NCBI GenBank assembly: GCA_030697505.1
Contig: JAUYPX010000018.1
Coordinates: 3,265 to 67,264 of the forward strand
Source of the DNA: Nanobdellota archaeon
GTDB taxonomy: Archaea > Nanobdellota > Nanobdellia > Woesearchaeales > GW2011-AR9
Reading direction: 5' to 3'
Length of the DNA: 64,000 nt
In this document: positions 10 to 54,351 of the stretch, piece after piece
Position numbering within the stretch: the stretch's first letter is position 1
Layout: each line of letters begins with the position of its first letter
Position numbers and translations under genes: made by a program
Notes under the pieces: model-generated
Databases searched by the model: none
What the model was told of the DNA's origin: nothing
The model's input: the letters and a program-made list of their open reading frames with translations, nothing else

Positions 10-321
10 ATGGAGTTATTTATAGAAGAAATAGAACAATTTTCTAAAGGTCTTTCTAAAGAAGAATTTAAAAAAAATAATTTAAAACAAAGCGCTATTC
101 TTAGAAAAATAGAGATATTGGGTGAGGCAGTCAAAAATCTTCCTGCTTCGTTCCGAAACAAATACCCCTCTGTTGAATGGAAAAAAATTACTGGTACTAG
201 AGATAAATTGATTCATCAATATTTTGGCGTTGATTTAGATTTAATGTGGGATGTTCTAAAAATAGAGCTGCCAAAACTTAAGAAAGAAATCGAGGAAATT
301 CTCCGGCTAGAAGAGCAATGA
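10..321 (+). CDS. HepT-like HEPN toxin (DUF86 family), possibly 5'-partial at the window edge
   Basis: Rx4HxY HEPN motif in TRDKLIHQY. The size and C-terminal helical region are typical of HepT. No stop codon between position 1 and the ATG at 10, so the ORF may extend upstream. The cognate MNT antitoxin would lie upstream of the window. Confidence 0.5.
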   Translation: MELFIEEIEQFSKGLSKEEFKKNNLKQSAILRKIEILGEAVKNLPASFRNKYPSVEWKKITGTRDKLIHQYFGVDLDLMWDVLKIELPKLKKEIEEILRLEEQ

Positions 322-3311: not shown

Positions 3312-4438
3312 TTCTTGGGTTGCACAATCTTTTTATGTACATGAACTTTTTTTGCCCTATGCAAGAAGAGCTGCTCCTGTTGGCCAATCCCAATGGCAAA
3401 AATGTCACTCCGCAAAAGATCAAGAGATTGCAAGACATCTTCCTGGAAGGAAAGGGAAAATTACAGACTACCTTGATTGTGACTAAAAATCTTTCTCAGC
3501 TCGAAAAAGTGATCACAGAATATAAAAGAGGAGGAACAAGCACGGTAGGCATCATCGGCGGCGATGGCACAGTCATGCATACCAGGACCTTGATAGAGAA
3601 CATCTGGGGTTATGCGCCGAGATATGCGTTCTTTCCACTGGGCACTATGAACAATATCCATCGCGCCCTAGGCCTGGGCAGATCCGATTCTTCTATTAGA
3701 TTAGCTCAGCATATGGTAACTGCCGCCGGCAATGATGCGCTGAAGGAATATACTATCTCTTTTCCTTCGTTAGATGCCAATGGGCGAAAGGGTTTCAATA
3801 TAGGCTTTGGGCTAATACCTAAGTTATTATGGCTGTACTATGGACATACCGCCAAACAGTACCGGGAATTAGAGGAAGCATTGCAACATTCTCCACCGAA
3901 AGAATATCAAGCGAAGTACAAAGAGATCACCAAAAAACAAGAGACTGACCTGTTTGATCTTTTATCCGAAGAACGGGGATTATGGGGAGCGGTTAAAACT
4001 ACGCTGCGATTGATGAATGGATTACGAAACTATACTGACGAGAGATATTTGCTCCATAAGCCTCTTTCCGGCGGGATCAGCTTTGATGGGCAACGGCAGC
4101 ATTTTCCCAAAGCGCCATTAGGCTTATACATCTCTTGTTACCAAGAAACCAATCTAGGATTAGGGCCTTTCAATCCCAAACCGGCGCCGGAAGCAGGAAA
4201 AGAGGAAGGGAAATTTCAGGCAGTGGTCCCTTATGGGAATCCATTTTCGATCATGCCGCAATTGCTAAAGGTCATAGCGGGGGGAAAGCTTTCCAATGCT
4301 GTCTACCAACAAGTTTCTTCGGCAGAACTTCCTTCCGAAAAATTTGCGCAGGTAGATGGAGAAATAATCTTAGAAAAAGGATTTAAGGTAAGCTATGACC
4401 GCAAACGAGAGATCATCTGCCTACCTGCAGCTGGATAA
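3308..4438 (+). CDS. lipid kinase of the diacylglycerol kinase catalytic domain family (YegS/DAGK_cat-like)
   Basis: GGDGTV motif after a beta-alpha stretch (VGIIGGDGTVMH). The true start may be the internal Met at 3359. Confidence 0.45.
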   Translation: MILGLHNLFMYMNFFCPMQEELLLLANPNGKNVTPQKIKRLQDIFLEGKGKLQTTLIVTKNLSQLEKVITEYKRGGTSTVGIIGGDGTVMHTRTLIENIWGYAPRYAFFPLGTMNNIHRALGLGRSDSSIRLAQHMVTAAGNDALKEYTISFPSLDANGRKGFNIGFGLIPKLLWLYYGHTAKQYRELEEALQHSPPKEYQAKYKEITKKQETDLFDLLSEERGLWGAVKTTLRLMNGLRNYTDERYLLHKPLSGGISFDGQRQHFPKAPLGLYISCYQETNLGLGPFNPKPAPEAGKEEGKFQAVVPYGNPFSIMPQLLKVIAGGKLSNAVYQQVSSAELPSEKFAQVDGEIILEKGFKVSYDRKREIICLPAAG

Positions 4439-7394: not shown

Positions 7395-8129
7395 TCAATC
7401 CCTTCTAACAATCTCTTTGATACATAAAATAGTATCCAACATCCCAATACTGGAAGCCAAACTTTTCCTTTTGCCGTCAGGACCAACATGAGAACTAGAA
7501 GCATGAATCATTCCTGCTAAAGCTCCATCACAAACTACGGCGCCTCCACTACATCCTGGAAACGAGTCGACTTCAGCAATATATTCATAACTTACTACAT
7601 TACCATGATTATGTTCTCTATTTTCTGTAACTAATCCTGGCTCACTTTGATATAATGTAGTTCTGTTTGGGCGAGCTAGAATATAGACCTCCTGGCCTAC
7701 GACAAGACCTGGATGAATATTAAACCGTTTTATCTCTGAAAAACCTTTTCCCTTCACTAATGCTAAATCTTGTTCTTCTGCGGAATGAAATAAAAAGGAA
7801 GTTTCAAGGGCATAAAAATTACCAGAATAATCTGCCACAGAAAGAAAACCAAGACTGTCCTGCTTTTGTTCATAAACTTTCTTCCAATCTTCTTTTCTTG
7901 GAGTTATGTTATGATACGCAGTGAGAATTATATCTTTTGTAATTCGAACTCCACCACCTACATCGTGTTGCACTCCATTCTTTTCATAAACCAAGGTTAC
8001 TAAGTTTTGTTGTAAAGATTTTTCAGATTCTTCTGGAGAAAGAACTTTTTTTTCTGCAGAGCATACGAAATCATTCAATTCTTTAACATCAACTTCGGTT
8101 AATAAAAACATTTTTCTCTGCCTAAACAT
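7395..8129 (-). CDS. trypsin-like (S1 family) serine peptidase
   Basis: Catalytic His in LTAYHN, Asp region DLALVK, and Ser in GCSGGAV (a GDSGG variant). Confidence 0.5.
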   Translation of the reverse strand: MFRQRKMFLLTEVDVKELNDFVCSAEKKVLSPEESEKSLQQNLVTLVYEKNGVQHDVGGGVRITKDIILTAYHNITPRKEDWKKVYEQKQDSLGFLSVADYSGNFYALETSFLFHSAEEQDLALVKGKGFSEIKRFNIHPGLVVGQEVYILARPNRTTLYQSEPGLVTENREHNHGNVVSYEYIAEVDSFPGCSGGAVVCDGALAGMIHASSSHVGPDGKRKSLASSIGMLDTILCIKEIVRRD

Positions 8130-21747: not shown

Positions 21748-22332
21748 TTACATTTCGGCACTTGATTCTTTTCTCATCTCTTCTTCAACTTTCCTCATGA
21801 TCTCTGCTTCTTTCAGAGGCGCTATCTTCTTTCCTTCATATGATTGGAGCAAGTTTTTGACCTGGCCATAAATATAGGCAGTGTCACCAACTAGTTGGCG
21901 AAGAAAATCTTCTTCGATCCGGAATTTATATATATATTTGTGGATCACACTCCTCATAAAATACGAGAAGGGCTTAAGGCCCCAACGGCCTTCATGGTTG
22001 GTTATGGACCAGGCGTCAAAGGCGATAAGCACATCGCCTTGCTGGTATTTTTGTTTGACTCCGGACACTTCTTTCATGGTTTCTGTGATAGTATCCAAAG
22101 TGATACGGATCTTGATCATCAGCTGCAGGTACGGAGAAACGCTTTTGGAGGGCCGTAATTCCAATTGCAGCAATCTTCCTTCGGGGGTCACCAATTCCTC
22201 GTTCTTCTTTTCGCTTTTTCCGTATCCTCTCTCTTCTATAGCATGATGTATGACTGAGAGCAGTTCACTGGTCCGAAAAACGCCGTGATAGACGATTTTC
22301 TTATTATTGATGAGCAGATTTTTTTCTACCAT
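21748..22332 (-). CDS. member 1 of an unknown three-paralog family in this window
   Basis: Shares the pattern Y.G.F....L..VI.....E.GY...EK and downstream blocks with 22335..22847 and 27599..28129. Confidence 0.4.
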   Translation of the reverse strand: MVEKNLLINNKKIVYHGVFRTSELLSVIHHAIEERGYGKSEKKNEELVTPEGRLLQLELRPSKSVSPYLQLMIKIRITLDTITETMKEVSGVKQKYQQGDVLIAFDAWSITNHEGRWGLKPFSYFMRSVIHKYIYKFRIEEDFLRQLVGDTAYIYGQVKNLLQSYEGKKIAPLKEAEIMRKVEEEMRKESSAEM

Positions 22333-22334
22333 GT

Positions 22335-22847
22335 TTATCTCCCATAGGCATGAGTGAAGGAATTAAGATATGTTTTTATCTTGTTATGCAGATCTTCCAC
22401 ATCACTCTTAAGCCAGGTCTCTGCTTTGCGATAATGCTCTTTAAAGAAATATTTTTCAAAGAGGATGCTCATGAACCAGTATAAAGGCTTTTCACTCCAT
22501 TTATTCTTACGGTCGCTGATAACATAGCCGTCAAAGACAACCCGCAGCGTGCCCTGGCTGGTTTTGATGACCGTGCTGCCGGCTTGAACATCAACATCCT
22601 TTAGATCAATGACATTCATCTTGATAGAGATGATCAGCTTGTAATAATCAGTGATATTTTTCCAGGGCTCTAAGATGATGCGCATCTGCTTTCCGGAAGA
22701 AGTTACCGTGACTTGGTTCATCTTTTCATACCAGTCGTAGCCTTTTTCATAAAAGAAAGAAGATATTACGTTGTGCAGTTCATCTAGATTGAATAACCCT
22801 TCGTAGGTAAATTTCAGGCGGTCCACAACCAGGTAGCGTTCAACCAT
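22335..22847 (-). CDS. member 2 of the unknown paralog family (tandem with member 1)
   Basis: Collinear similarity to 21748..22332; abuts member 1 on the same strand. Confidence 0.4.
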   Translation of the reverse strand: MVERYLVVDRLKFTYEGLFNLDELHNVISSFFYEKGYDWYEKMNQVTVTSSGKQMRIILEPWKNITDYYKLIISIKMNVIDLKDVDVQAGSTVIKTSQGTLRVVFDGYVISDRKNKWSEKPLYWFMSILFEKYFFKEHYRKAETWLKSDVEDLHNKIKTYLNSFTHAYGR

Positions 22848-23534: not shown

Positions 23535-24170
23535 ATGGTGTCGTTTTTAAAAAGCCTGTTCAAGAAACTGTCATCGAATCCTTTTAGTAAAAAGAGCCAT
23601 ATCAAATTAGGATTGTATGGGCCTCCCAATGGAGGTAAGTCTACCTTAGCCAATAAGATCTGCCAGGACTGGCTGGGAGAAGAGATGTCTACGGTTTCTC
23701 ATATCGCGCACGAGACCAGAGAGATCAAAATCAAGGAGCAGGTCAATATCAAGAACAAGAAAGGCAAGGAACTGACTTTTTCTCTGGTGGACACGCCCGG
23801 TATTTCCACTAAAATCGATTATGAGGAATTCATCCGCAAAGGATTGAAGAAAGTTGAAGCGAAGAAGCGGGCCAAAGAAGCGACCAAGGGAGTGATCGAC
23901 TCCATTAAATGGCTGGATGATATGGATTCAGTAGTAGTGGTCTTAGATGCGACCAAGGATCCTTATTCTCAAGTTAATATTACCATCATCGGAAACTTAC
24001 AGGCCCGTAATATTCCGGTGCTTATCGCCGCTAACAAAGTCGATTTAAAAAAAGCAGGCATTGATACCGTCAAAGCAGCATTTCCGCAGTACAAAGTGGT
24101 GGGAATTTCTGCCAAGTATGGTAAAAATATCGAAGAGTTTTATGAGCAGCTCTTCACTCTTACCAGCTAA
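23535..24170 (+). CDS. small GTP-binding protein of the archaeal GTPase/DUF2073/DUF2072 trio
   Basis: P-loop GPPNGGKST, G3 DTPG, G4 NKVD. Confidence 0.6.
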   Translation: MVSFLKSLFKKLSSNPFSKKSHIKLGLYGPPNGGKSTLANKICQDWLGEEMSTVSHIAHETREIKIKEQVNIKNKKGKELTFSLVDTPGISTKIDYEEFIRKGLKKVEAKKRAKEATKGVIDSIKWLDDMDSVVVVLDATKDPYSQVNITIIGNLQARNIPVLIAANKVDLKKAGIDTVKAAFPQYKVVGISAKYGKNIEEFYEQLFTLTS

Positions 24171-24278
24171 AGAGTTTTCAAGAGCAAGTATTAAAACAGT
24201 AAATGTTAAAAAGGCCAAAAGATTACTATCACTAGGATATAGAGATTAGAAAGAGTTTCCAAAAGAGGTATAGAAGAG

Positions 24279-24674
24279 ATGGTTACGTTTAAGTTTGTAC
24301 CGTATTATGAAATTGAAGGTCTTTCTTCCGCTAAGAGAGTCAATAAACTGCTCAAGATTGTCAAAGAAGACAAGATCGTGATCATGGAAGGACGCCTGCG
24401 TAAGCAGGAAGAAGCCGATTTAATAGAAATCACCATGGAAGAGATTTCCCCCAAGTTTAAAGGGATAGAGTTAAGCGTCATCTATCCCGATAAGGATAAA
24501 CAGGATGCATTGCAAAAACTCAAAGGGATGATGGCGAGTACGTTGCTGGGTGACCGGCAGGGACTTACCATCGTAGGCCCAGCTTCAGTGGTAAAAAAGA
24601 TTGAAAACAATCCTGATAAAATAGAATTATTTACTCGGGAAAGTAGAGCTAAGCAACGGGTAAAGCGCTCATAG
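24279..24674 (+). CDS. DUF2073-family protein (archaeal, usually adjacent to a GTPase and the DUF2072 Zn-ribbon protein)
   Basis: Size and position between the GTPase and the Zn-ribbon protein; assignment by gene order and overall pattern. Confidence 0.4.
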   Translation: MVTFKFVPYYEIEGLSSAKRVNKLLKIVKEDKIVIMEGRLRKQEEADLIEITMEEISPKFKGIELSVIYPDKDKQDALQKLKGMMASTLLGDRQGLTIVGPASVVKKIENNPDKIELFTRESRAKQRVKRS

Positions 24675-24730
24675 GAAGTATATAGTGTTCAATAGAAACT
24701 TATAAAAATAGTAAAATCTACGGTTTCTCT

Positions 24731-25132
24731 ATGCCACATCAATGCGTCCGTTGCAATACCTTCTTTCCTGATGGAGCTGCCGAGATCCTCAAAGGATGCA
24801 GCTGCGGCGCACGCTTGTTCTTTTATATCAAAAAGAAAGATATTGAGTACGGCAAAGAACTGCTTACCAACCTTAGTGAGGAAGATAAGATCAACATCGA
24901 AAAAGATGTGGCAGAAGTGCTGAGCATCCGGGAAGAAGAGCCTGATGCGCCGGTAATTCTTGATCTAGAATCTATCCGCGTGGTAAAGCCCGGGAAATTT
25001 GAAATCGATCTGGTGCATCTGTTCAAGAAAGATCCGTTGATCATCAAGTTGGAAGAAGGAAAATATATGATTGATCTTCCTCAGGCGTTCAAGAAAATGA
25101 AGGAAGATAATGAAGAGAAGGAGAAGAAATAA
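24731..25132 (+). CDS. Zn-ribbon-containing protein (DUF2072-like)
   Basis: N-terminal C4 ribbon (CVRCNT...CSCG) followed by a conserved acidic region; completes the conserved trio. Confidence 0.45.
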   Translation: MPHQCVRCNTFFPDGAAEILKGCSCGARLFFYIKKKDIEYGKELLTNLSEEDKINIEKDVAEVLSIREEEPDAPVILDLESIRVVKPGKFEIDLVHLFKKDPLIIKLEEGKYMIDLPQAFKKMKEDNEEKEKK

Positions 25133-26053: not shown

Positions 26054-26167
26054 GAAAATGTAGAAAGGGAGTTGATTTAAAAAGATTTTGTTCAACCTTG
26101 TTAACTACTTCCCAAATATACTTTCAAGGCTCAAAATCCATATAATTCATGAATTGGCCTTCAGCAT

Positions 26168-27010
26168 ATGAAATATATTAATTTTAACCTAAAAGAACAG
26201 CAAGATTTCATGAAAATAGTTAAAACTAATTCTAATCTTACCTGGAAAGCAATTGCTTATTCTCTTGGGATAAGTAGAAGTATGATCTTTTGTTATCTAA
26301 ACGGAAAATCAAAGATTTCAAAAGAAAACTATGAAAAGCTGTCTGAAATGGCAAAAATTGAACCCCAGTACAATTCTTATGTAATCATAAAGAACAAAAC
26401 TCAAAATATTAACACTCCTAAGCAAATAGATGAAAAACTGGCTGAGTTTATAGGATTATTAGCTGGAGATGGACATGTCTCTAAAATAAATTATGAAATA
26501 TCTGTTACTTGTCATAAAAAATTGGATAAAGATTATGTAAATAACAGAGTAAGTAAGTTATTTCTCGATTTATTTTCAATAGACGCTAAAATTAGAGAGA
26601 GTAAGGAAAACAATGTAGTAAGGTGTTCAGTTCATTCAAAATTGCTTTCAGAATACTTAACCACCAATTTTCTAATACCTCGTGGCAAAAAGAAAGGGAA
26701 ACTTCATATTCCTACACAAATCAGAACTGAAAAAGAACTTTTAATTCCTTACATTAGAGGTTTATTTGATACTGATGGAAGCATTTATTGTCGTAGAAAG
26801 AAAAGCTTAGTCGTTTCAATAATAAGTAGGGATCCAGTATTTCTCAACGAGGTGAAGAATGTTTTAACAGAATTAGGTTATTCTCCCAGCGTGAGCGGAA
26901 AAAACTTATATATTTACAATCAGGAACAAGTCAAGAGATTTATGATTGAAATAAAACCATCAAATCTAAAACATCTTAATAGATACGATAATTTTATAAA
27001 TAAAGTATAA
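26168..27010 (+). CDS. free-standing double-motif LAGLIDADG endonuclease-like protein with an N-terminal HTH domain
   Basis: Two LAGLIDADG-type motifs (FIGLLAGDGHV and RGLFDTDGSI) separated by about 100 aa. The N-terminal 60 aa resembles an HTH (IAYSLGISRSMIFCYLNG). Confidence 0.6.
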   Translation: MKYINFNLKEQQDFMKIVKTNSNLTWKAIAYSLGISRSMIFCYLNGKSKISKENYEKLSEMAKIEPQYNSYVIIKNKTQNINTPKQIDEKLAEFIGLLAGDGHVSKINYEISVTCHKKLDKDYVNNRVSKLFLDLFSIDAKIRESKENNVVRCSVHSKLLSEYLTTNFLIPRGKKKGKLHIPTQIRTEKELLIPYIRGLFDTDGSIYCRRKKSLVVSIISRDPVFLNEVKNVLTELGYSPSVSGKNLYIYNQEQVKRFMIEIKPSNLKHLNRYDNFINKV

Positions 27011-27024
27011 TGGTTTAAGCTTAT

Positions 27025-27197
27025 GCACCGGTGGTCCAACGGCTAAGAGATCTCTAAAAAAAGAACTAGCAAACTTCGGCCTTCCAAGCCGACTATCCGG
27101 GTTCGAATCAAATGTCACGCCATTTGCGAGGCGGAGGGATTTCGCTCTGGCTCAATCCCATAATCGTGACAATTTGTCGAAAGTCCCGGCCGGTGCA
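27025..27197 (+). tRNA. tRNA, probably Gly (anticodon UCC), interrupted by two putative non-canonical introns (about 27054-27075 near position 26/27, and about 27109-27184 in the T-loop/T-stem junction)
   Basis: Acceptor 5' GCACCGG (27025-31) pairs with 3' CCGGTGC (27190-96), discriminator A, no encoded CCA. Anticodon arm TCGGC-CTTCCAA-GCCGA (27076-92). T-arm CCGGG-TTCGAAT (27097-108) pairs with CCCGG (27185-89), which lies immediately 5' of the acceptor 3' strand. Exon lengths 29+34+13 sum to 76 nt. Confidence 0.5.
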
Positions 27198-27218
27198 TTC
27201 CTTTCTTAAAACCATCAC

Positions 27219-27548
27219 TCAAAAATCCATCCTATACTCATTCCCATGCTTCTTAAACCCTAACTTTTCATAAAGATGATGTGCGCGTTCATTAGAGAAT
27301 CTGCTGGTACAGATCAATTTATAACATCCGCGTTTCTGCGCTTCTTCGATGATGGCGGCGGTGATCTTCTCCCCATAGCCTTTTCCCCTGAATACTTCTT
27401 CTACAAAGATGTCTTCCATCAAGCCGAAAGGTTGGGCATGCAGATCGTTATGTAAAATATATAGAAACCCTCGGCCTAGGGTTTGCCCATTTTCTTCAAG
27501 CATTATTTTCACACCGGAAGCGGAAATATTTTGGGTTAATGTTGGCAT
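27219..27548 (-). CDS. GNAT-family N-acetyltransferase
   Basis: Acetyl-CoA binding motif A region FRGKGYGEKITAAIIEEA and C-terminal YEKLGF. Confidence 0.6.
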   Translation of the reverse strand: MPTLTQNISASGVKIMLEENGQTLGRGFLYILHNDLHAQPFGLMEDIFVEEVFRGKGYGEKITAAIIEEAQKRGCYKLICTSRFSNERAHHLYEKLGFKKHGNEYRMDF

Positions 27549-27598: not shown

Positions 27599-28129
27599 CT
27601 ACTCCCCTTCGGCCAAATAGCCTTGGTAAGGGAATTTCTTAGCCTGCATGTCAAAATATTTTTTTATCTGAGCATGCAGATTCCAGACCCGATAGTAAAG
27701 CTGGTCAAAGTACACCGTCTCGATAGGATTCATATGCGGCAGTCTGTAAAACCATTTTCCCAGCAGCTGGGCAAACTTGCTTCCGCCAAATTTCTTCTGC
27801 CAATCATGCTCGATAGCACTATTGATGATGATGTATAATCTTGCTCTCATCAGCGGTTTCTTACGGCCTTCTGCAGCTACATCCTTCACTTCCCACATAT
27901 GGACAGTGAACAGGATATCATACTTGATGAATTCAGTCACGTTATTGGTGAGCTGCCAAGCTAGCTCTTGCTCTGCGCCTTCCGCGCCGGGAACTTTGTG
28001 CTTAAAAGAAGATTCATGCCACATATAGCCGTTCTTCTTGGCCCATTCGTGCACTTCAGCATACAATGCATCAAAATCAAATACGCCGTTATAGCGCAAG
28101 GTAATTTGGGGAAGAGGGACTTTCAACAT
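27599..28129 (-). CDS. member 3 of the unknown three-paralog family
   Basis: LRYNGVFDFDALYAEVHEWAKKNGY parallels the N-termini of 21748..22332 and 22335..22847. Confidence 0.4.
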   Translation of the reverse strand: MLKVPLPQITLRYNGVFDFDALYAEVHEWAKKNGYMWHESSFKHKVPGAEGAEQELAWQLTNNVTEFIKYDILFTVHMWEVKDVAAEGRKKPLMRARLYIIINSAIEHDWQKKFGGSKFAQLLGKWFYRLPHMNPIETVYFDQLYYRVWNLHAQIKKYFDMQAKKFPYQGYLAEGE

Positions 28130-32159: not shown

Positions 32160-33347
32160 TTATCCCTTTAAAGCCAGGTAAAGCTCTCGCATCTTTCTAT
32201 TCTTTCCTAGTTTTTCCAATGCTTGCGCTTCCAGCTGCCTGATCCGTTCACGGCTTAATCCATGCCTATCGCCTATCTGCTGCAGTTTGAGAGGTTCTTC
32301 ATCAAAGCCAATACGTTTATTGATAATATCCAACTCCATGGGGGTTAAAATTGATTTCAAAGTACGGTGAACGATCTCTTTTTGTTGATCTCGAAATACC
32401 TGCTCCAAAGGTGAAGCTGAAGCTTTGTCCTCAAGGACGGAATGAAAACTTAGGCCTGGAAAGTCATCTTCCTGAGTTTGAATTTTGTCTAACGAAAAAG
32501 GTTCGGCATCCAGCAAGGCATCCACCACTACTCTAGCAGGAAATTTAGTAGCCTTAACTATCTCTTCGACGCTTACATGGTCCTGGCCCTTTTTCTGTCG
32601 CAGCTGGATATGGGCCGTTTTTACTTTGTTAAAAACTGCTTCCGCCTGTACAGGTATGCGGATAGTTCGGCTGGTGTTGCTGATGGCCCGGCCTATTTCC
32701 TGCCGTATCCACCAAGTAGAGTAAGTAACAAATTTGAAACCTTTTCTATAATCAAAACCATCTACGCCTCGATAAAGACCTTCGTTTCCTTCTTGGATAC
32801 AATCAAGCAAACTCATTTTACCGCGGCGGGCATATCTCTTAGCGATAGAAACAACAAAACGTAAATTGTGTTTCGCAAGTAAGTCTCTCGATTCTTCCCA
32901 GACGGAAACCAGTTCTTCCAACTGTTCCCGTTTCTTATTGATTTTGCTGAGACTTGATCTGGAACGCCCATAAAGTACCTGCTCTTCATCCTGATTGAGT
33001 TTTTGCTGATAGGCCCCTACCACCGTTTTGTAGGTGCTGGTAAAGGGGACAATCTGACGCAATACTTCGATACGCCCATAGAATTTCTTTTCTGAAGTTG
33101 CTCTGACAGTTAAAAGGCGTTTCACTGCCTGTTTATTTTTCTTCTCCTCTTGCGGCAGCTGATCCAGAAAATAAGTTGTTAAAAATGCCGGGTCGGATCG
33201 GAATACCGTCCAGAGAATCTTGTTGCCATTTCGCTCAATCTGCTGAGCTGCGGCAATTTCTTCATCACGATTGAGAGGAGAATATCCTCCAATTTCTCGT
33301 AAATAAGTCTCAATGTTCTTACCGGTTACAGTAGGTTTTATCATCAT
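32160..33347 (-). CDS. bacterial-type RNA polymerase sigma-70 family factor (regions 1.2, 2, 3 and 4 all present)
   Basis: Region 1.2 YLREIGGYSPLNRDEEIAAAQ. Region 2 NLRFVVSIAKRYARRGKMSLLDCIQEGNEGLYRGVDGFDYRKGFKFVTYSTWWIRQEIGRAI. Region 3 TIRIPVQAEAVFNKV. Region 4 HTH TPMELDIINKRIGFDEEPLKLQQIGDRHGLSRERIRQLEAQALEKL. Confidence 0.8.
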   Translation of the reverse strand: MMIKPTVTGKNIETYLREIGGYSPLNRDEEIAAAQQIERNGNKILWTVFRSDPAFLTTYFLDQLPQEEKKNKQAVKRLLTVRATSEKKFYGRIEVLRQIVPFTSTYKTVVGAYQQKLNQDEEQVLYGRSRSSLSKINKKREQLEELVSVWEESRDLLAKHNLRFVVSIAKRYARRGKMSLLDCIQEGNEGLYRGVDGFDYRKGFKFVTYSTWWIRQEIGRAISNTSRTIRIPVQAEAVFNKVKTAHIQLRQKKGQDHVSVEEIVKATKFPARVVVDALLDAEPFSLDKIQTQEDDFPGLSFHSVLEDKASASPLEQVFRDQQKEIVHRTLKSILTPMELDIINKRIGFDEEPLKLQQIGDRHGLSRERIRQLEAQALEKLGKNRKMRELYLALKG

Positions 33348-41466: not shown

Positions 41467-42108
41467 GTGATGGATAAAGGTGGAAAGCTCAAGAAAGCCT
41501 GGCACTTCTTTTGGCATGAAGATTCCCTAGCCAGTTTTGCAGTAAACATAGGAGTAGCACTTTTAGTGATCATATACGTGGTCTATCCGCTCTTAGGAAT
41601 GGTTTTAGGGACTAGTTTTCCTATCGTGGCAGTGATCAGCGAAAGTATGCAGCATGGGCTGCATAACGGAAAATTATGTGATGCGTACTTTGTTGAATTC
41701 AAAGAATCCTTTGACAATTACTGGGATGTTTGCGGATCTTGGTATGAAGAGCAGGGGATCAGCAAAGAAAGGTTCAAAAGCTTTCCTTTTGCCCAGGGAT
41801 TTAATAAAGGGGATGTGATCGTGCTCTGGAGAGCAAATAAAGATAACCTTGAAGTAGGTGACATTTTAGTTTTTCAAAACGACCGGCCTCAACCGATCAT
41901 CCATCGGATGGTGCAGATCGAGGAGGAAGACGGAAAATCTTTTTATCACACCAAAGGCGACCATAACCGCGGTTCTATCGCAGGAGAAGAGAAAATAGAT
42001 CAAGGCAGGATTTATGGCAAAGGGTTATTTCGGGTGCCCTATTTAGGCTGGGTAAAGATATTGTTTGTGGAACTGGTACGGCCGTTAGGCTGGAATATCC
42101 AGAGATAG
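41467..42108 (+). CDS. signal peptidase I (S26 family)
   Basis: N-terminal TM helix, catalytic Ser box VISESMQHGL, and box E-like KGDHNRGS. Confidence 0.55.
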   Translation: MMDKGGKLKKAWHFFWHEDSLASFAVNIGVALLVIIYVVYPLLGMVLGTSFPIVAVISESMQHGLHNGKLCDAYFVEFKESFDNYWDVCGSWYEEQGISKERFKSFPFAQGFNKGDVIVLWRANKDNLEVGDILVFQNDRPQPIIHRMVQIEEEDGKSFYHTKGDHNRGSIAGEEKIDQGRIYGKGLFRVPYLGWVKILFVELVRPLGWNIQR

Positions 42109-47750: not shown

Positions 47751-50381
47751 CTACCAGTCGGTATTCTTGCTTACTCCGCCCTGTTTCTGGGAAACGCTGG
47801 TAGAACCCTGTCCAGAGCGCTGCCAGTTGACTTCTCCGATAGAGGAAGTGACCGCACTGAAGCAGACATTATCTATTTTACCGAAACCGATGGCTGCTCC
47901 CTCACGCCCGGCTACATTCATGCTGATCGGCGCTTGATTCCAGACAATGCAAGCCTGGTCGTAGAGATTAGTTGAATATTTGATGATGACGTCCCGATCC
48001 GACGCGCCGTTCTGAAGTTGGATGGGCGAGGCAACATTGCCGTTAAGATTGTAGATGGGAGTAGCCTGCTCGCCTTTTTTGAGGAAGATGTTAAAGGATA
48101 CGGCAACACCGTTTTCATCTTTCAAGGGCGTAAAGGCTTCATCCCGCGGAGCGGAAGCAGCCCAGGTTATTTTATAGAAATATCCTTTCAGCGGATTTTT
48201 ACTGTCAGGAGCGCCATCACGATCTTCATCAGCATAACAGAATTGGTCTTTGACGCAGACCTGTCTTCTGTCGCAGATAAATTGTTGATCCGCTTCTTCA
48301 TCCGGATTCTTGTGGCAGAGGATAGGAGTCGCTTCCTGAGAGCGTTCCATCTGTATTGAAGCGACCGCCTGATAGGTTCCGGAGATAGTTTTGATCACCG
48401 CCTTTCCTTCCGGCTCGATGTCTTTCCAGTGCAATTCATCATTTTCACAGATCGCGGAAGGGATCCAGTTAGATCCCAGCAAGGGAGCGAAAGCTTTATC
48501 CATACCGCTGCGCCAGTCCTTATAGAACGTTGCTTTTCCGAAGATAAGATTGCTGATAGCCGGATAAGATTTGATACTGTTGGTGACCGCGTAGATGGAT
48601 TGGAGCGCACCTTGCGCTTGCGCTAAAGAACCTTGAGTGCTGGAATAACGATCGTCGGCTAATTTTTTGTTTTTTTCATTGGCAAGAAACTTATTGGCAA
48701 CATCAACTCCGAGAGGTTCTTCTCCCTTGGGCTGACCCTCTAATTCCGCTGCTGCCCAATTCCCTTTTTCATCTTTGGTTATTAGGCCTTTATTTCCATC
48801 TTTATCTGTGACTTCAAATAAGCCAGTATATCCTTTTTCTCCTCGCTGAGCAGCAATTCCGCTTCCATCAGGAAGTATCGTTCCTTCCTGTCTTCCGGTA
48901 AGAGGATTGAAAAGTTCCTTATCTTCTAATTTACGATTTGCGCCAGTGAATTCACGATCTGCCCCGGTAGGAGTTTTATAATCATAATCGATTAAATAAG
49001 ACTGGGGCTTTCCATCGGCATCGGAGATAGTGGCAGTACCACCGGTAGGAACCCAACAACCTCCTTTAGTAGAACATCCTGACTCGCCGTCTTTGTAATA
49101 ATCAATTTTCAAAGATTGTGATTCCTGAGTTTTGATAATCTGCATGGTTTCTTTATCGTAATCTACAGCAGTCATAACACCATCCTTTAACTGCATAAAG
49201 CCAGAAGATTCACCTTTCTCGCCAGGGAGCTGGATTCCTTGCGATAAGTCGCTTTTGCTGTCGGCAATATTTTTATCTTTAGGGAATTTATAAGAAGCAT
49301 CGCCGACTTTTACATTGCCACTCTCTGCTTCTTGGCTAATTAAGATTTGAGTATTTTTGATCAGGTATGTTTCAACTAACTTACCGTTTGCGAAACGATT
49401 TGCTTCCAATATTCCGTCTTCTCCTGCTTTCTTGTCAACAATTACCTCTCCGCCGCTGCCGCTCATAACTAACGTTCCCGCAGTTCCCGCACCCGGCCTT
49501 TCAAATATATTTTTTACTTTTCCTATACTTTTTTCAAACTGCTGGTAGCTAGAGCCGAGAGATTCTTGCAATTGAGATTTGGTATCCGGATTTATACCTG
49601 AAGCGGCTGCATTTTCTTGTAATTTTTGTAATGCCTGTGCTTCGGTTACTTTTACACCAGTTCCTTTGCTATTAACGATAAAATATTCCCCTTTACTGTT
49701 CTTAAAAACCGTTCCTTCTTTATGAAAGTCTTTATCTGTTTCCTTAGTCCAAGTAGGTATATTATTAGAAGTAGGAGTTGCCGCTGGTTGTTTTGCTGTT
49801 GTTGCAGTAGGTTGTTGTGATGAGGAAGTTCCTGCAGGAGTTGTTGATTTTGGAGTGGGCTGTGGCAATCCTCCCTTTACAAGATCAATCGGCACATTTT
49901 TATATCCTGCAGAATAAGTTGCTCCTTTAGTATCTACACAGCCGGCTTCAAGACACTCACATAATTGTCCCGAACACTGCCATCCTCCTGAGGAGGCCGC
50001 AGGAGTTGTAGATGGTGCCGGTTGCTGTTCTGGGGTACTAGGAACAGAATATTGTCCCTGCACCATATCTGTAATTGGCGCTGTTTTTCCTGAGCTATAT
50101 TTTTTACCATTAACGTCATAACAAACCAATACGGAATGACAAGTACATACAGAGCCTGTACATTCCCATAACACGGCAGATCCCACCAACGGCTCAGAGC
50201 GGTCAAACCAGGCTTTACCGGCTCTTGCTTCTTTGCTGCCGAATAAGAACTGCCAGATCTTGCATCCAAGATTGCAATCTGCAGGAGCTTCACTAGAGGA
50301 ATCATTTGTTTCTTGCGCTATCGCAAAGATGGAACTACATAAAAGGAAAAGTACCAACATCACAACCACTTTTTTCATCAT
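47751..50381 (-). CDS. large secreted Cys-rich protein with Thr/Pro/Ser-rich linkers, hypothetical surface protein
   Basis: Signal peptide, repeated Cys-containing modules (SGQLCECLEAGC, VCTCHSVLVC) and PT/S-rich linkers. Confidence 0.4.
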   Translation of the reverse strand: MMKKVVVMLVLFLLCSSIFAIAQETNDSSSEAPADCNLGCKIWQFLFGSKEARAGKAWFDRSEPLVGSAVLWECTGSVCTCHSVLVCYDVNGKKYSSGKTAPITDMVQGQYSVPSTPEQQPAPSTTPAASSGGWQCSGQLCECLEAGCVDTKGATYSAGYKNVPIDLVKGGLPQPTPKSTTPAGTSSSQQPTATTAKQPAATPTSNNIPTWTKETDKDFHKEGTVFKNSKGEYFIVNSKGTGVKVTEAQALQKLQENAAASGINPDTKSQLQESLGSSYQQFEKSIGKVKNIFERPGAGTAGTLVMSGSGGEVIVDKKAGEDGILEANRFANGKLVETYLIKNTQILISQEAESGNVKVGDASYKFPKDKNIADSKSDLSQGIQLPGEKGESSGFMQLKDGVMTAVDYDKETMQIIKTQESQSLKIDYYKDGESGCSTKGGCWVPTGGTATISDADGKPQSYLIDYDYKTPTGADREFTGANRKLEDKELFNPLTGRQEGTILPDGSGIAAQRGEKGYTGLFEVTDKDGNKGLITKDEKGNWAAAELEGQPKGEEPLGVDVANKFLANEKNKKLADDRYSSTQGSLAQAQGALQSIYAVTNSIKSYPAISNLIFGKATFYKDWRSGMDKAFAPLLGSNWIPSAICENDELHWKDIEPEGKAVIKTISGTYQAVASIQMERSQEATPILCHKNPDEEADQQFICDRRQVCVKDQFCYADEDRDGAPDSKNPLKGYFYKITWAASAPRDEAFTPLKDENGVAVSFNIFLKKGEQATPIYNLNGNVASPIQLQNGASDRDVIIKYSTNLYDQACIVWNQAPISMNVAGREGAAIGFGKIDNVCFSAVTSSIGEVNWQRSGQGSTSVSQKQGGVSKNTDW

Positions 50382-50382
50382 T

Positions 50383-50703
50383 TTAGACTATTTTTATTCC
50401 ATTTTTTACTGCTTCTTGCACTACACCTAACTCATTTTTTTTTCCACGAAATTCTTTGGGGGTTAAACAGACAAAATCAACAGGATAATCTAAATTCCAC
50501 TTCATATATAGTTGAGGAGCTCTTTGTAATCTTCGTTTTCCAATAAATTCTTTTGAGACTAATAATAAGTCTACGTCACTGCTTCTTTTTGCTTTCCCTG
50601 TTGCACGGGAACCAAATAAGTACATTTTATCTACAGAAATATCATCTGATACTTCTTGGGCAAAACCCTTCAACGCTTTCACTAAAGCTGCTTTTTTATC
50701 CAT
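50383..50703 (-). CDS. minimal nucleotidyltransferase (MNT antitoxin-like)
   Basis: LFGSRATGKAKRSSDVDLLLV is the GS..DxD Pol-beta NTase signature. Overlaps the upstream HEPN ORF. Confidence 0.6.
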   Translation of the reverse strand: MDKKAALVKALKGFAQEVSDDISVDKMYLFGSRATGKAKRSSDVDLLLVSKEFIGKRRLQRAPQLYMKWNLDYPVDFVCLTPKEFRGKKNELGVVQEAVKNGIKIV

Positions 50704-51053
50704 ATCAACACCTCTCCTGCCATTCCTAAGATTTCTTCTGCTTCATTCTTATTAATCTTGTCGGCAGGCAATTCATTACCTTCAGGATAACGAACTTCTA
50801 CATATACTGGATTGATTTCCGCGCACTTCTTAACTATTTCTAAAGGAGCATTCACTTCTCTCGCTAACTTAACCACATCATGGATTCGTAATAATTCCCC
50901 TTTCTCTTTAAGATATAAAGATTTTAATGCTTTCTCTACTGCTTGCTGTGATAGTAATGCAGAAACATAATAATCTTTAGAGTTAAAACTATTCTTTGAG
51001 CTCTTTAAATCACGTTCCGCTTGTTTCCACCACACCTCAATTTCTCTTTTCAT
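50682..51053 (-). CDS. HEPN-domain protein (putative toxin partner of the MNT)
   Basis: Helical protein with ALLSQQAVEKALK and a conserved R...H region (LLRIHDVVKL), typical of HEPN paired with MNT. Confidence 0.5.
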   Translation of the reverse strand: MKREIEVWWKQAERDLKSSKNSFNSKDYYVSALLSQQAVEKALKSLYLKEKGELLRIHDVVKLAREVNAPLEIVKKCAEINPVYVEVRYPEGNELPADKINKNEAEEILGMAGEVLIWIKKQL

Positions 51054-51054
51054 T

Positions 51055-54000
51055 TTATACTACTCCAAAGGTGCCGCCGACCGCGTCACAGTAATTCAAT
51101 CCGCCATTCTTGAAGTCGGCGATGACTGTGGTCAGGAAGCCGGCAACACTTTCTATGATTCCTATAATATCCCAAATAAAGTAGGCGTAGCTGCACGCTG
51201 ATGAACCCGTATTACTGACTGAACATAATGAACTGCATGTTACTATCGTTAAGGTATGGGCTATCGCAATAGGATCAGCTAAGGCCTTAGCCAATCCATT
51301 AATTATCTGATCGAAGAATTGGGAGAAGGGCAGGATATACCACAATTCTCCTACCACATATTTACAGACCAGCATATCTTCTAATTCTTCACACATGCTT
51401 ACTGTCGCCAATCCTGATCTGACTTCATTCTCCAGGCAGACAATTTTCCTACATTTGATCTGCCTGAGCTTATCAAGATTCTTGATGATTCCAGGAATGC
51501 ACAAACCGGCAATAGAAAGGAAGAGATTGTCGCGGATGTCCCGGGCAGGAAATGCTTCATTTTTTCCCAAAGGATCTCCCGGTGCTTTGAGCAATTCTAT
51601 TTTGTACACTTCAAGGATAAATGACTGCCATTTCCCATACCAGCCTAGATCAGCTTTCCCAGTCGGACGACAGGATAACACTTGAACTATTTTATCAATA
51701 ATATCGGAACCTTTACGCACTCCTTCTGATGCGCCGCTGAATCCAAAACAAGCGGCAGTCCGTCCAGCTTCTCCAATGCCGGGAATAACTTTAAAAGATT
51801 CAGTCCCTAATTTTCCTGCACTCTCAAATACGCCGATGATGGTTACTACGATATTGTAAATCTGCACTAAATAATCCACATACTTCAAAATATTAGCTAA
51901 TACACCAATTATATCCCAGGCAGTATTGATATCGTCACGAGCATCTTTGATCACTTGCTCTAGATTCTCATCCTGCGCTCCTAAGGCGGAAAAGGCAAAC
52001 GGCACCAGCACTTTCACCTGCTGCACTTCTGCTGCTCTGATGGCATTCTTGCCGACCTGAGAAAATATTTTCAAGGTACAGACATATTCGACTTCCTGTT
52101 TTACAAATTGGGTCTCTTCTTTCTGTCCGATCTGGAACATGGAACGCCCGTCAAACGGCTCAAACTCCACGATCACATTCGGCGTTGGCGCATAATCGCC
52201 GGCAGCAGATACGCCGCCGTATAATATAGCGCGGCTGATCTTCGGTGAATTGCTGTTAGTCTCCTCTTTCGCTGCTGTTTCTTTACCTGCAGCTTTCTTA
52301 CTGTCAGCAGTAGGAACCGCACAATTGACTAATTGGATATCCAGCGCTTTTACGTCGCTGAGATCAGAACTCAAAGATACTTTGAATGGCAATCGGGTAT
52401 AGGTAAGCTGGGTAGTATCTAAATCAATAAAGGCATTGGCGCCGCCGGCAGGAACAACTTTGCGCACTTCCCAGAAGTCAGGGTTTTCTTCCGTCGATAA
52501 TCCCAGCAAATCGAGAGTGATAGAAGCTTGCTCTTTGCCGCTCTTGAATCTCTTGGCATTCTTAGGCTCATTTTCTGATAAAGGCCAGCTCACCGCATCA
52601 TTTCCGGCGGTATCCTGCACTTGAACCGGAATTTCTACCCCGGATTCAGGACCACTTTTGATAGGCTCAGTCTCCAGCGCACATTCCCAGTGCCCTTCCA
52701 TCCGTTTACAATCCTGATCGGTAAAGATAACCCAGCCATCTTCGTCAATAAAATCATTGGCCGGATATTTATTCTCTGCGTCCAACAAGAGATCCTGGAC
52801 ATTCACTAAAACCCGCAGGCCGCTGCTTTCCGAGGCGCGCAAGACAATCTTCAGTTTATCATTGCTTTGAAAATAATTTTTATCGCCAACTTCAGAGACG
52901 CCGAATATTTCCACCGCTTCTACTTTCGGACCGGTGTTGTCGACCACAAATTCATATTCCGGCGCAGCGCCTTCGTTGCCGACGTTATCTTCAAATCGGG
53001 ATAAGCCGAAGGTTAATACCCCTTCATTGACATTTTCATCTACATCCCAATAGCATTCTAAAACGCCGGCCGTCTCCTGGCAGGCAGTCGGCTCAGCAAG
53101 ATTGCTCAGGCCGAAGCCGACTAAATTAGCGCGGATGCCTTCTTTGCTTATGCCTGCGCCTTGGTCATCAGCTCGCAAAATAATTCTATTCTCGCCGTCT
53201 TTCAAATGACTTTTTCCTTCAAACTGCCTGGCGGTGCCAAAGAACTTGATGCTCGGAGCAGAATTATCGACTACAAAAGTAGAAGATAAACTTTTCTCAG
53301 CCGCATTGCCTTTGGCATCCGTAGCTTTTACTAAGATCGCTATGCTGCTGGCAGGATCAACTTTCACATCCTTCCAGGTGCAATGCCAGAGATCATCGAT
53401 ATCGGCATCAGCTTCACAGCTGGCGGCATCGCCGTCAAGATCAGCCTGCTGAGAGTGCCCTATCACCACAGGAACACTTTTTTCCACTACCTCAACTACA
53501 ATATCGGTGGAAGAGGCAAACTCCCCGATGAATTTGCCAAATTTAGTGAAATTTAATTGGTTGCCGATCTGCGGCTTGATAAAGTCAGCAAAAAATGATA
53601 CCGAAGAGCTGAAGGAGACATGGCCTAAATTATCTTCAGCGCGGATCTTCAATTTTTTAATTCCATCACCGCTTAATTGCTGGGACTGCAAAATTCCTTC
53701 AAAGCCAGCATCATTAAGGTAACTAAAGGTTTCTTTTCCTTCAGGAAGGTCGATAGCCTGAAGAACATTGGCAGTATCGCTGTCGATAATATCAATTTTC
53801 TTTAATCCGGCAGAGGGAAAACCTTCTTTTTTATCATTCACGGTGAAATCAAGCTTGACTTTCCCGTCTTTATCCTGGCTTACTTTTCCCGGAGAGAAAA
53901 AAATCTGCGGAGCTGAGCCGTCTGCTTTGATCACTTCGCCGGCGGAAGCGCTCTCTTGTTTCAAGGCGGCATTGAGGAAAGAGTAAATCACTTGGAAGGC

Positions 54001-54351
54001 ATATTCTCCTTCCTGAATTCCATCAGTAAGCGGACTGATATATTTACACAATACTCCTAAGGTGCTGGGCGAACAGGAAGTGAAAGGAGCCTGATTATCG
54101 CCGATCTTAACTTTCACATCTTCCGGCTTGACGCTGGCATTACTGGTTCCTGCACCTGAGATCAACGCTTCCACGGTCCAGACGTCGCCTTGCGCATCAA
54201 TATGTTGCTGAAGTGCTGCTTCACCTTCATTTTTGGTGATCTGCACAGATGAAGCCAAAGCACTGGCAGAATACACCGGCATGCTTAGGACTAGCAGTAC
54301 CATAAACAAACCAGCCATGCTCCAGATGTTTTTTGCGTTTTGTGATTTCAT
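51055..54351 (-). CDS. giant secreted protein (1098 aa), hypothetical surface or adhesion protein
   Basis: Signal peptide, long beta-rich repeats, and a Cys-rich hydrophobic C-terminal region. Confidence 0.45.
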   Translation of the reverse strand: MKSQNAKNIWSMAGLFMVLLVLSMPVYSASALASSVQITKNEGEAALQQHIDAQGDVWTVEALISGAGTSNASVKPEDVKVKIGDNQAPFTSCSPSTLGVLCKYISPLTDGIQEGEYAFQVIYSFLNAALKQESASAGEVIKADGSAPQIFFSPGKVSQDKDGKVKLDFTVNDKKEGFPSAGLKKIDIIDSDTANVLQAIDLPEGKETFSYLNDAGFEGILQSQQLSGDGIKKLKIRAEDNLGHVSFSSSVSFFADFIKPQIGNQLNFTKFGKFIGEFASSTDIVVEVVEKSVPVVIGHSQQADLDGDAASCEADADIDDLWHCTWKDVKVDPASSIAILVKATDAKGNAAEKSLSSTFVVDNSAPSIKFFGTARQFEGKSHLKDGENRIILRADDQGAGISKEGIRANLVGFGLSNLAEPTACQETAGVLECYWDVDENVNEGVLTFGLSRFEDNVGNEGAAPEYEFVVDNTGPKVEAVEIFGVSEVGDKNYFQSNDKLKIVLRASESSGLRVLVNVQDLLLDAENKYPANDFIDEDGWVIFTDQDCKRMEGHWECALETEPIKSGPESGVEIPVQVQDTAGNDAVSWPLSENEPKNAKRFKSGKEQASITLDLLGLSTEENPDFWEVRKVVPAGGANAFIDLDTTQLTYTRLPFKVSLSSDLSDVKALDIQLVNCAVPTADSKKAAGKETAAKEETNSNSPKISRAILYGGVSAAGDYAPTPNVIVEFEPFDGRSMFQIGQKEETQFVKQEVEYVCTLKIFSQVGKNAIRAAEVQQVKVLVPFAFSALGAQDENLEQVIKDARDDINTAWDIIGVLANILKYVDYLVQIYNIVVTIIGVFESAGKLGTESFKVIPGIGEAGRTAACFGFSGASEGVRKGSDIIDKIVQVLSCRPTGKADLGWYGKWQSFILEVYKIELLKAPGDPLGKNEAFPARDIRDNLFLSIAGLCIPGIIKNLDKLRQIKCRKIVCLENEVRSGLATVSMCEELEDMLVCKYVVGELWYILPFSQFFDQIINGLAKALADPIAIAHTLTIVTCSSLCSVSNTGSSACSYAYFIWDIIGIIESVAGFLTTVIADFKNGGLNYCDAVGGTFGVV

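Follow-up and report, generated by a model that had tools for sequence, protein, structure and literature searches.

How tRNA introns move between archaeal genes and genomes is the question on which the locus described here bears. In a 64-kb stretch of archaeal DNA (the window), a tRNA-Gly(UCC) gene at 27025-27197 (+) was found in three separated pieces, directly downstream of an open reading frame (ORF) for a protein with a helix-turn-helix (HTH) domain and two LAGLIDADG motifs. Judged from the sequence, 27025-27197 almost certainly serves a DPANN (Woesearchaeota/Nanoarchaeota-like) archaeon as a functional gene for tRNA-Gly(UCC), with two introns spliced at bulge-helix-bulge (BHB) motifs. 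With moderate confidence, the upstream gene is read as a free-standing mobile LAGLIDADG homing endonuclease gene targeted to the tRNA locus. A two-intron tRNA gene accompanied by a free-standing homing endonuclease is probably the best overall explanation of the locus.

Loci retrieved for comparison were numbered L001 to L035; coordinates are otherwise those of the window. A scan of 185,579 species genomes, with the anticodon arm and the 5' half of the T-arm as the query, produced 19 loci, many of them from metagenome-assembled genomes (MAGs) of Woesearchaeota/Nanoarchaeota, and the exon 2 pattern was exact in all. A second scan, of metagenomes, collected tRNA-Gly genes with an insertion anywhere in the D-region. 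The endonuclease family comprised about 190 homologues, and genomic contexts were examined for 13 distinct members, picked for long contigs. The endonuclease gene is called absent when it is not at the retrieved locus; the term refers to the locus, not to the whole genome.

Exons and introns of the tRNA-Gly(UCC) gene

The gene was divided as follows.

27025..27047 (+), exon 1: acceptor 5' strand, D-stem 5' strand, D-loop and A22-G23
27048..27072 (+), intron 1: 25 nt, at position 23/24, in the D-stem 3' strand
27073..27107 (+), exon 2: A24-C25, anticodon arm, variable loop of 4 nt, T-stem 5' strand and T-loop 54-59
27108..27183 (+), intron 2: 76 nt, at position 59/60, in the T-loop
27184..27197 (+), exon 3: T60, T-stem 3' strand, acceptor 3' strand and discriminator A73

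The acceptor helix of 7 bp was formed by GCACCGG (27025-27031) and CCGGTGC (27190-27196), followed by the discriminator A27197, and CCA was not encoded at the 3' end. The anticodon arm TCGGC-CTTCCAA-GCCGA was unbroken at 27076-27092, with the anticodon TCC at 27083-27085; the T-stem halves CCGGG (27097-27101) and CCCGG (27185-27189) were separated by 83 nt. All three elements lay where the original prediction, made from the sequence before this analysis, had placed them. Its proposal of a tRNA-Gly(UCC) with two non-canonical introns agreed with in-silico splicing, intron-less orthologues, BHB geometry and covariation, and BHB motifs, which it had expected at the junctions, were found there. 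Some of its measurements had to be revised: the first insertion was 25 nt and not about 22 nt, and the exons summed to 72 nt (23 + 35 + 14) and not to 76 nt. The length of about 76 nt given for the second insertion was right (exactly 76), while its place was not after the T-loop but, by BHB geometry, inside it.

The exon and intron limits were fixed by comparison with L016 and L005. In L016, the sequence of exon 1 and exon 2 was identical and uninterrupted, reading GGCTAAG|AC at the junction; L005 was the same save for one acceptor-stem base and likewise lacked intron 1. Both carried an insertion after TTCGAA. The 5' part measured 25 nt in the intron-less copies and 50 nt in the window. When the three exons were joined in silico, ARAGORN called tRNA-Gly(tcc) with a standard cloverleaf and a 4-nt variable loop. 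The spliced tRNA was identical to the orthologue of L009 at 65 of 72 positions, and four of the seven differences made up two compensatory acceptor-stem pairs. ARAGORN was also run on 10,368 junction combinations and accepted 4,284; since it accepts thousands of junction choices, it is unable to place splice sites, and the junctions were taken from the orthologues and the BHB rule. A scan of the window revealed no other tRNA with intact T-arm and acceptor pairing.

BHB motifs of the two introns

In intron 1, the central helix consisted of GCTA (27042-27045) and TAGC (27067-27070), and the bulges were AG|A (27046-27048) and AA|A (27071-27073), giving a strict 3-4-3 core. The BHB 3-4-3 rule led to the same junction as the orthologue comparison. 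By standard numbering this is position 23/24; sequence alone equally permits 24/25. A permissive BHB finder gave many false candidates per precursor and was of use only with the orthologue constraint; it missed intron 2 of the window because of the extra nucleotide in that motif.

Intron 1 was present with substitutions in L020-L023, L014, L028, L029 and L030; in the four close relatives from the metagenome scan, the substitutions were GTTC/GAAC and GTTC/GAAT. Other copies of intron 1 in the window and the retrieved loci were limited to the counterparts in L020/L021 and a weak 15-nt match in L017. Among seven distinct 23/24 introns, those of L014, L028, L029 and L030 included, 96.8% of cells were paired on the BHB template, a value reached by none of 500 shuffles; slid controls were 7-38% paired, and all four inner-helix pairs were altered on both sides. 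Covariation was counted only on these seven introns because the MAFFT alignment of 12 D-region BHB templates followed D-loop sequence, not structure.

In intron 2, the central helix was TTCG (27102-27105) with CGAA (27178-27181), and the T-stem served as the exon helix. The 5' bulge was AA|T (27106-27108), the 3' bulge was AG|T (27182-27184), and the inner helix consisted of CAAAT/ATTTG plus GTCACG/CGTGAC. BHB geometry placed the intron at 59/60, sequence alone also permitting 60/61 or 61/62. The minimum free energy fold of the whole precursor contained the acceptor, anticodon and T stems, with the AGU bulge against the T-stem. Introns at 59/60 occurred in 12 loci and measured 18-87 nt. The NN|T 3' bulge was found in 12/12 and a Watson-Crick TTCG/CGAA central helix in 10/12, the helix having 4 bp via a G-U pair in L015 and 3 bp in L007; the inner helices of the 12 introns were unrelated in sequence. 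The only other copy of intron 2 in the window and the retrieved loci was its L016 orthologue, a partial intron to which it was 95-97% identical.

Reading of the intron 2 sequence for C/D-box small RNA features revealed no RUGAUGA or CUGA boxes. A group I or other self-splicing intron was rejected, as no Rfam family was found in 26900-27300 at E<=10 and the insertions are too short.

Sequences related to the tRNA-Gly introns and 3' end were seen in some of the retrieved loci. In L024, a second copy of its 59/60 intron (4149-4194, 89% over 46 nt) lay about 120 nt 3' of the tRNA, with a TATA-like element before it and inverted repeats on both sides; a relationship of the L024 intron to a free-standing small RNA is conceivable, as is a mobile sequence that occurs repeatedly. 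By sequence, the intron of L014 was of one family with the L024 59/60 intron. In several loci, a slightly diverged repeat of the 3' end of tRNA-Gly(UCC), e.g. CGGCCGGCGCA, was found 47-110 nt downstream: L001 (about 3400-3530, sense strand), L025 (3955-4090), L029 (3545-3665) and L030 (3530-3590). The inter-repeat sequences of L001 and L030 were alike (tcagc..cgg.cggt.ccg.aacg). Such repeats could be scars, left by att-like integration or by repair, or they could mark an intron of the acceptor 3' strand that has gone unrecognised.

Detection by tRNA finders

ARAGORN never found the tRNA-Gly locus in the window, whether by default, with introns allowed (-i and -i0,200) or with a lowered threshold, and Rfam showed no tRNA in the window at gathering score, nor in 26900-27300 at E<=10. 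Low-threshold ARAGORN calls at 2496-2725, 41641-41713, 49844-50048, 50330-50512 and 59885-60029 were judged not credible. The intron-less orthologues L009 and L012 scored about 67 bits with the Rfam tRNA model (67.6 for L009). Both programs succeeded on these two and failed on the 59/60-intron genes of L005, L007, L021 and L023; the L007 gene was missed although its 59/60 intron is merely 18 nt. Since related 59/60-intron genes were likewise missed, the negative results on the window represent a blind spot of the tools and not a refutation.

ARAGORN and Rfam missed every 59/60-intron tRNA-Gly examined, and the T-loop intron of many Woesearchaeota/Nanoarchaeota lineages is therefore systematically overlooked. 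The locus is an example of tRNA genes that stay hidden and make the tRNA sets of DPANN archaea seem incomplete; undetected disrupted tRNAs in DPANN were anticipated in earlier literature (PMC5829648, PMC3239211).

Proposed transcription and splicing of the precursor

A promoter-like element was located just upstream of the tRNA gene.

26992..27002 (+), TATA-box-like element TTTTATAAATA: -33 to -23 of the tRNA, within the last endonuclease codons

The equivalent (C)TTTATAAA was found about 25-35 nt 5' of most related tRNA-Gly genes, and we infer that the element acts as the tRNA promoter. A T-rich trailer, TTCCTTTCTT, followed the tRNA-Gly gene.

Transcription from the gene's own TATA promoter would give a precursor of 173 nt. 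Cleavage of both BHB motifs by the archaeal splicing endonuclease (EndA) would release the introns of 25 nt and 76 nt. The three exons would then be joined into a 72-nt tRNA by an RNA ligase, presumably of the RtcB type known from other archaea, and CCA would be added after splicing. The types of the splicing enzymes were taken from the literature because there was no EndA or RtcB within the window. Relaxed D-region intron motifs require a broad-specificity EndA (PMC4090602, PMC5829648). Alpha4 EndAs with an L3 loop have been reported in several DPANN lineages and tied to more disrupted tRNA genes (Kaneta et al. 2018, PMC5829648), in a survey that included a Woesearchaeota genome. The need for a relaxed-specificity splicing endonuclease, part of the original prediction, is plausible here.

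Several observations weigh against splicing as proposed. The inner helix of intron 1 (GATCT 27049-27053 / AGAAC 27062-27066) contained one A-A mismatch, and the exon-side helix of intron 1 was the single pair G27041-C27074 (G18-C25). The motif of intron 2 was relaxed and not strict because one extra nucleotide, T27177, stood opposite the 5' bulge. The 64 ORFs found in the window included neither EndA nor RtcB. A decaying tRNA pseudogene, or chance tRNA-like pieces with unspliced insertions, would account for the intron 1 mismatch and for the failure of ARAGORN and Rfam on the unspliced DNA; however, the exons equalled uninterrupted orthologues, the BHB cut sites restored the orthologous sequence, the helices covaried, a promoter and a T-rich trailer were in place, and the architecture was kept in many lineages. 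The pseudogene explanation is strongly disfavoured and highly improbable.

The upstream HTH-LAGLIDADG gene

26168..27010 (+), gene for an HTH, double-motif LAGLIDADG endonuclease of 280 amino acids (aa), with D101 and D203

That the upstream ORF encodes an HTH plus double-LAGLIDADG protein, as originally described, was confirmed by the Pfam matches (LAGLIDADG_3, 3.3e-15; HTH_3 at the N-terminal residues 21-67, just under cutoff) and by the two motifs (GDGH and FDTDGS), which were invariant with their catalytic residues D101 and D203 in an alignment of 20 homologues of 35-94% identity. Family members examined were of uniform length (270-330 aa). The ratio of nonsynonymous to synonymous change (dN/dS) was 0.10 against L023, indicating purifying selection.

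The nearest solved sequence relatives were V-ATPase intein endonuclease domains. The AlphaFold (AF2) model had a predicted local distance difference test (pLDDT) score of 93.3, and its best Foldseek matches were the TliVMA intein endonuclease domain, I-Tsp061I and I-DmoI, in keeping with the alpha-beta-beta-alpha-beta-beta-alpha fold of LAGLIDADG homing endonucleases. The latter two had the closest predicted fold (TM-score about 0.65-0.71 on target) and are monomeric double-motif archaeal enzymes of RNA genes with BHB introns; unlike the window protein, to which they showed about 20% identity, they are encoded by ORFs inside rRNA introns and lack an N-terminal HTH. The bI3 maturase and WhiA were also among the Foldseek matches, WhiA at ranks 46-50, and some family members carried the label WhiA in the automatic annotation of the Joint Genome Institute (JGI). 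WhiA likewise combines a LAGLIDADG scaffold with an HTH; it differs from the window protein in that its HTH is C-terminal, its LAGLIDADG motifs are degenerate and its catalytic aspartates are gone. A regulator of the WhiA type was rejected in view of the invariant catalytic aspartates, the N-terminal HTH and the low rank of the WhiA structures.

The stop codon lay 14 nt before tRNA position 1 (the prediction had counted 15 bp), and the introns of 25 and 76 nt held no ORF. As the ORF lies wholly upstream of the tRNA, the gene is not intron-encoded, and a homing endonuclease encoded within an intron (I-DmoI type) was ruled out. The remark that LAGLIDADG proteins are intron-associated thus fails here in its literal sense; it holds in the form of a tight and specific linkage to tRNA genes.

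Presence, absence and recent exchange of the endonuclease cassette

Comparison of the syntenic loci delimited a cassette and, overlapping it, a tract of high identity.

26091..26990 (+), cassette of about 900 bp with the HTH-LAGLIDADG gene, from blastn synteny and multiple alignment of the ZPR1-tRNA spacer
26060..26800 (+), high-identity tract to L023: 95-100%, with two 100-column windows of 90-92% in the sliding profile

The leader common to both allele types ended at 26090 (AAAAAGATTTTG), and homology was picked up again at about 26993. The window and L022/L023 had the cassette. It was absent, with clean limits, from L005, L016, L020 and L021, where ZPR1 adjoined tRNA-Gly.

Outside the tract, identity between the window and L023 was 70-88% in host genes, 76-82% in the last third of the ORF, 93-96% in the tRNA 5' part and 52-68% in intron 2. 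Codons 1-210 showed a proportion of synonymous differences (pS) of 0.127, as opposed to 0.73 in ZPR1 (Fisher p = 1.6e-22) and 0.63 in codons 211-280. When ZPR1 was compared by nucleotide identity, L005, L020 and L021, which lack the endonuclease, were nearer to the window than L022/L023 were. Intron 2 was discordant as well: the window type matched L016, the most distant by ZPR1, and L022/L023 matched L005. The mosaic of identity together with the discordant ZPR1 and intron 2 relationships shows the locus to be a recombination mosaic, and the 5' three-quarters of the endonuclease gene has evidently been exchanged recently between non-sister lineages, by lateral exchange or gene conversion.

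Other differences were noted around the same site. In L020/L021, an inverted-repeat element, rich in GC and about 130 nt long, stood in place of the cassette (L021, about 7600-7750); it had no Rfam match. About 5 kb between tRNA-Gly and a GNAT gene in L021 (7990-13108) was absent from the window, and the DNA 3' of the tRNA was variable in L005 and L022/L023 too.

Linkage of the endonuclease family to tRNA genes

All 13 distinct members examined, the window's included, were on the same strand as a tRNA gene and adjoined its 5' end; for homologues of 37-94% identity, the distance ranged from 38 nt upstream of the tRNA to overlapping. For the ten archaeal members of at least 37% identity the neighbour was always tRNA-Gly(UCC). 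The relatives, with their identity to the window protein and the neighbouring tRNA gene, were as follows.

L024, 60%: tRNA-Gly(UCC), three introns
L028, 60%: tRNA-Gly(UCC), 23/24 and 53/54 introns
L025/L026, 56%: tRNA-Gly(UCC), D-loop intron
L027, 56%: tRNA-Gly(UCC), D-loop and 59/60 introns
L029, 47%: tRNA-Gly(UCC), 23/24 and anticodon-loop introns
L030, 44%: tRNA-Gly(UCC), 23/24 intron
L031, 38%: tRNA-Gly at 2381-2457, intron-less; endonuclease gene between tRNA-Arg(CCT) and tRNA-Gly
L033, 37%: tRNA-Gly(UCC), 22/23 and 37/38 introns
L032, about 30%: tRNA-Glu(CUC)-like at 3401-3570, intron (about 90 nt) following the anticodon loop
L034/L035 (Patescibacteria), about 30%: intron-less tRNA-Tyr(GTA) at 2783-2865, next to ClpB

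ARAGORN found only the intron-less one of the endonuclease-linked tRNA-Gly genes. In the viral control, 0/37 distant LAGLIDADG loci had a tRNA within 2 kb. Viral contigs, considered as a vector of the family, held only relatives of at most 36% identity.

The adjacency might instead be inherited gene order, going back to a single ancestral landing with occasional loss and involving no functional or selfish tie. The order ZPR1-endonuclease-tRNA was indeed common to the window, L022/L023 and L024, and ZPR1 (68% aa) and the endonuclease (60% aa) were similarly diverged. Against this, all other neighbours differed in L025, L027-L031 and L033, where the endonuclease-tRNA pair was nevertheless kept; distant relatives stood beside other tRNAs in other lineages, bacteria included; and the patchy distribution among close relatives, the low-divergence tract and the viral control without tRNA adjacency all pointed the same way. 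Inherited order is an improbable explanation.

Possible association with D-arm introns

A D-region intron was present in 9/10 endonuclease-linked tRNA-Gly genes and in 3/19 unlinked loci of the genome scan (p = 1.9e-4), or in 3/14 when the unlinked loci were limited to the 14 DPANN-like ones (p = 0.003), the linked and unlinked samples not being phylogenetically matched. The 59/60 intron showed no association with the endonuclease (4/10 vs 8/14, p = 0.68). The linked D-region introns fell within a 4-nt stretch, at 20/21 (ATGG/CCAT), 22/23 and 23/24 (GCTA/TAGC). Counter-examples occurred in both directions: a D-region intron without the gene in L020/L021, L014, L017 and L018, and the gene without an intron in L031 and beside the bacterial tRNA-Tyr genes. 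A link of the endonuclease to D-arm introns is suggestive only.

A tentative explanation of such a link is that the recognition site of the endonuclease is the D-arm DNA of tRNA-Gly(UCC) in its uninterrupted form; introns at 20/21 to 23/24 would split the site, give immunity and be co-copied. If true, collaborative homing would be carried over to archaeal protein-spliced introns, and a first DNA-level mechanism would be at hand by which BHB introns spread from one tRNA gene to another, a process that has been called 'still unknown' (PMC4090602). With natural alleles that have or lack the endonuclease gene and have or lack the D-arm intron, this candidate mechanism is testable by a simple cleavage assay.

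The same association would also fit a different role of the protein, that of a domesticated host factor: a WhiA-like regulator of tRNA-Gly transcription, or a maturase-like folding chaperone for pre-tRNA with a D-arm intron. The low dN/dS, uniform length and N-terminal HTH would agree with such a role, as would the tRNA linkage kept over deep divergence, the D-region introns in nine of ten linked genes, the structural matches to the bI3 maturase and WhiA, and the WhiA labels from JGI. Both catalytic aspartates were invariant, however, although they are not required for DNA binding or maturase activity, and the protein differs from WhiA in the position of its HTH and found WhiA only at rank 46 or lower in the fold search. 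In addition, the gene was dispensable in very close relatives with the same tRNA, of which L020/L021 even retained intron 1; D-region introns occurred without it in L014, L017 and L018, and its bacterial relatives stood beside intron-less tRNA-Tyr. The recent lateral exchange tract is a further point against domestication, which is considered unlikely.

Proposed homing and comparison with known systems

For the homing endonuclease, persistence would be selfish: the enzyme would cleave alleles that lack the endonuclease, at a site within the tRNA gene or beside it, and its gene would be copied in during recombinational repair, as in intronless homing (PMC3984707). The tRNA promoter sits in the last codons of the gene, and it is proposed that loss of the gene is for this reason costly to the host. 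Two sets of observations weigh against homing. Uniform length, strong purifying selection and ZPR1 synteny kept down to 60% identity also fit a domesticated function; and the high-identity tract stops inside the gene, short of the tRNA, so that it may reflect recombination of two endonuclease-bearing alleles and not homing.

Among known systems, SegB of phage T4 is a free-standing endonuclease encoded among tRNA genes, which targets the region and drives its preferential inheritance (PMC2988022). Host promoters embedded in T4 endonuclease genes favour the retention of these genes (PMC2988022), which may be compared with the position of the tRNA TATA box here. Unlike the window gene, a LAGLIDADG gene on an archaeal chromosome whose activity is inferred, SegB is a GIY-YIG enzyme of a phage genome, without introns and with demonstrated activity. 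In collaborative homing (F-CphI with the psbA intron, mobE with I-TevIII), the gene for a free-standing endonuclease neighbours one with an ORF-less intron; the target is the site of intron insertion, and this intron shields the allele and is co-converted (PMC3984707, PMC2790892). The introns there belong to self-splicing group I and interrupt protein genes of phages, whereas here they are protein-spliced BHB introns in a tRNA gene.

tRNAs with several introns at non-canonical positions, including 59/60 in DPANN, were already established (PMC4090602, PMC3239211, PMC5829648). In ARMAN-2 (Ca. Micrarchaeum), likewise a DPANN archaeon, pre-tRNA-Cys(GCA) and pre-tRNA-Pro(GGG) have a 59/60 T-loop intron (Fujishima et al. 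2011, PMC3239211). In tRNA-Cys its BHB motif is relaxed (hBH), in tRNA-Pro it is strict; some genes have more than one intron, and cleavage of the 59/60 hBH intron by the archaeal splicing endonuclease was shown in vitro (PMC3239211). The window differs from ARMAN-2 in the tRNA and the lineage concerned, in the length of the intron (76 nt against 13 nt in ARMAN-2) and in the second intron at 23/24. Thermoproteales tRNA genes have up to three BHB introns, e.g. at 20/21, 22/23, 25/26, 53/54 and 59/60, and M. kandleri pre-tRNA-Glu(UUC) has a D-loop HBh' intron (PMC4090602, PMC5829648); unlike the source of the window, these thermophiles belong to the TACK group or the euryarchaea. The positions quoted in the accessible part of PMC4090602 do not include 23/24, and the accessible parts of PMC4090602 and PMC5829648 do not link multi-intron tRNA genes to a neighbouring gene for an endonuclease. 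The literature searched gave no account, in archaea or in bacteria of the candidate phyla radiation, of a family of free-standing LAGLIDADG genes bound to tRNA-Gly(UCC) or, more generally, to the 5' flanks of tRNAs, and novelty is not thereby proven. If the homing explanation is true, intronless homing, mainly a phenomenon of phages and organelles, would extend to ultrasmall archaeal and bacterial chromosomes.

Genomic context of the window

The archaeal origin that the original prediction assigned to the contig was supported by genes for ZPR1, prefoldin, FtsY, a TFS-type zinc ribbon, NMD3, Tyw1, OapA/B/C, IleRS and MetRS in the window, by the TATA-box promoters and by relatives named Woesearchaeota or Nanoarchaeota. 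The MAG contigs L005, L014, L015 and L016 were titled 'uncultured Methanosarcinales archaeon'. All four had the same type of disrupted tRNA-Gly, and L005 and L016 shared gene order and 75-85% nucleotide identity with the DPANN-like window; the four titles are probably wrong.

In the ORF 32160-33347 (-), beside IleRS, Pfam matches (E = 3e-16, 7e-11) pointed to regions 1.2, 2 and 4 of bacterial sigma-70; such a bacterial-type sigma factor is unusual on an archaeal contig and may be a horizontal transfer. Three ORFs on either side of the tRNA region, 21748-22332, 22335-22847 and 27599-28129 (-), encoded proteins of 170-194 aa without a Pfam match, which look like paralogues by a pattern recognised by eye (...Y.G.F....L...I......GY...E...). 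Three long ORFs, 47751-50381, 51055-54351 and 54357-56732 (-), encoded proteins of 876, 1098 and 791 aa with no Pfam match at E<=1e-4. A HepT-like HEPN ribonuclease ORF at 10-321 (+) and a nucleotidyltransferase/HEPN pair at 50383-51053 (-) are typical toxin-antitoxin modules. Just 5' of ZPR1, genes for an OapA-like GTPase, OapB and OapC followed in series (23535-25132, +); the cluster was also found in L024 and suggests that a replication origin is nearby.

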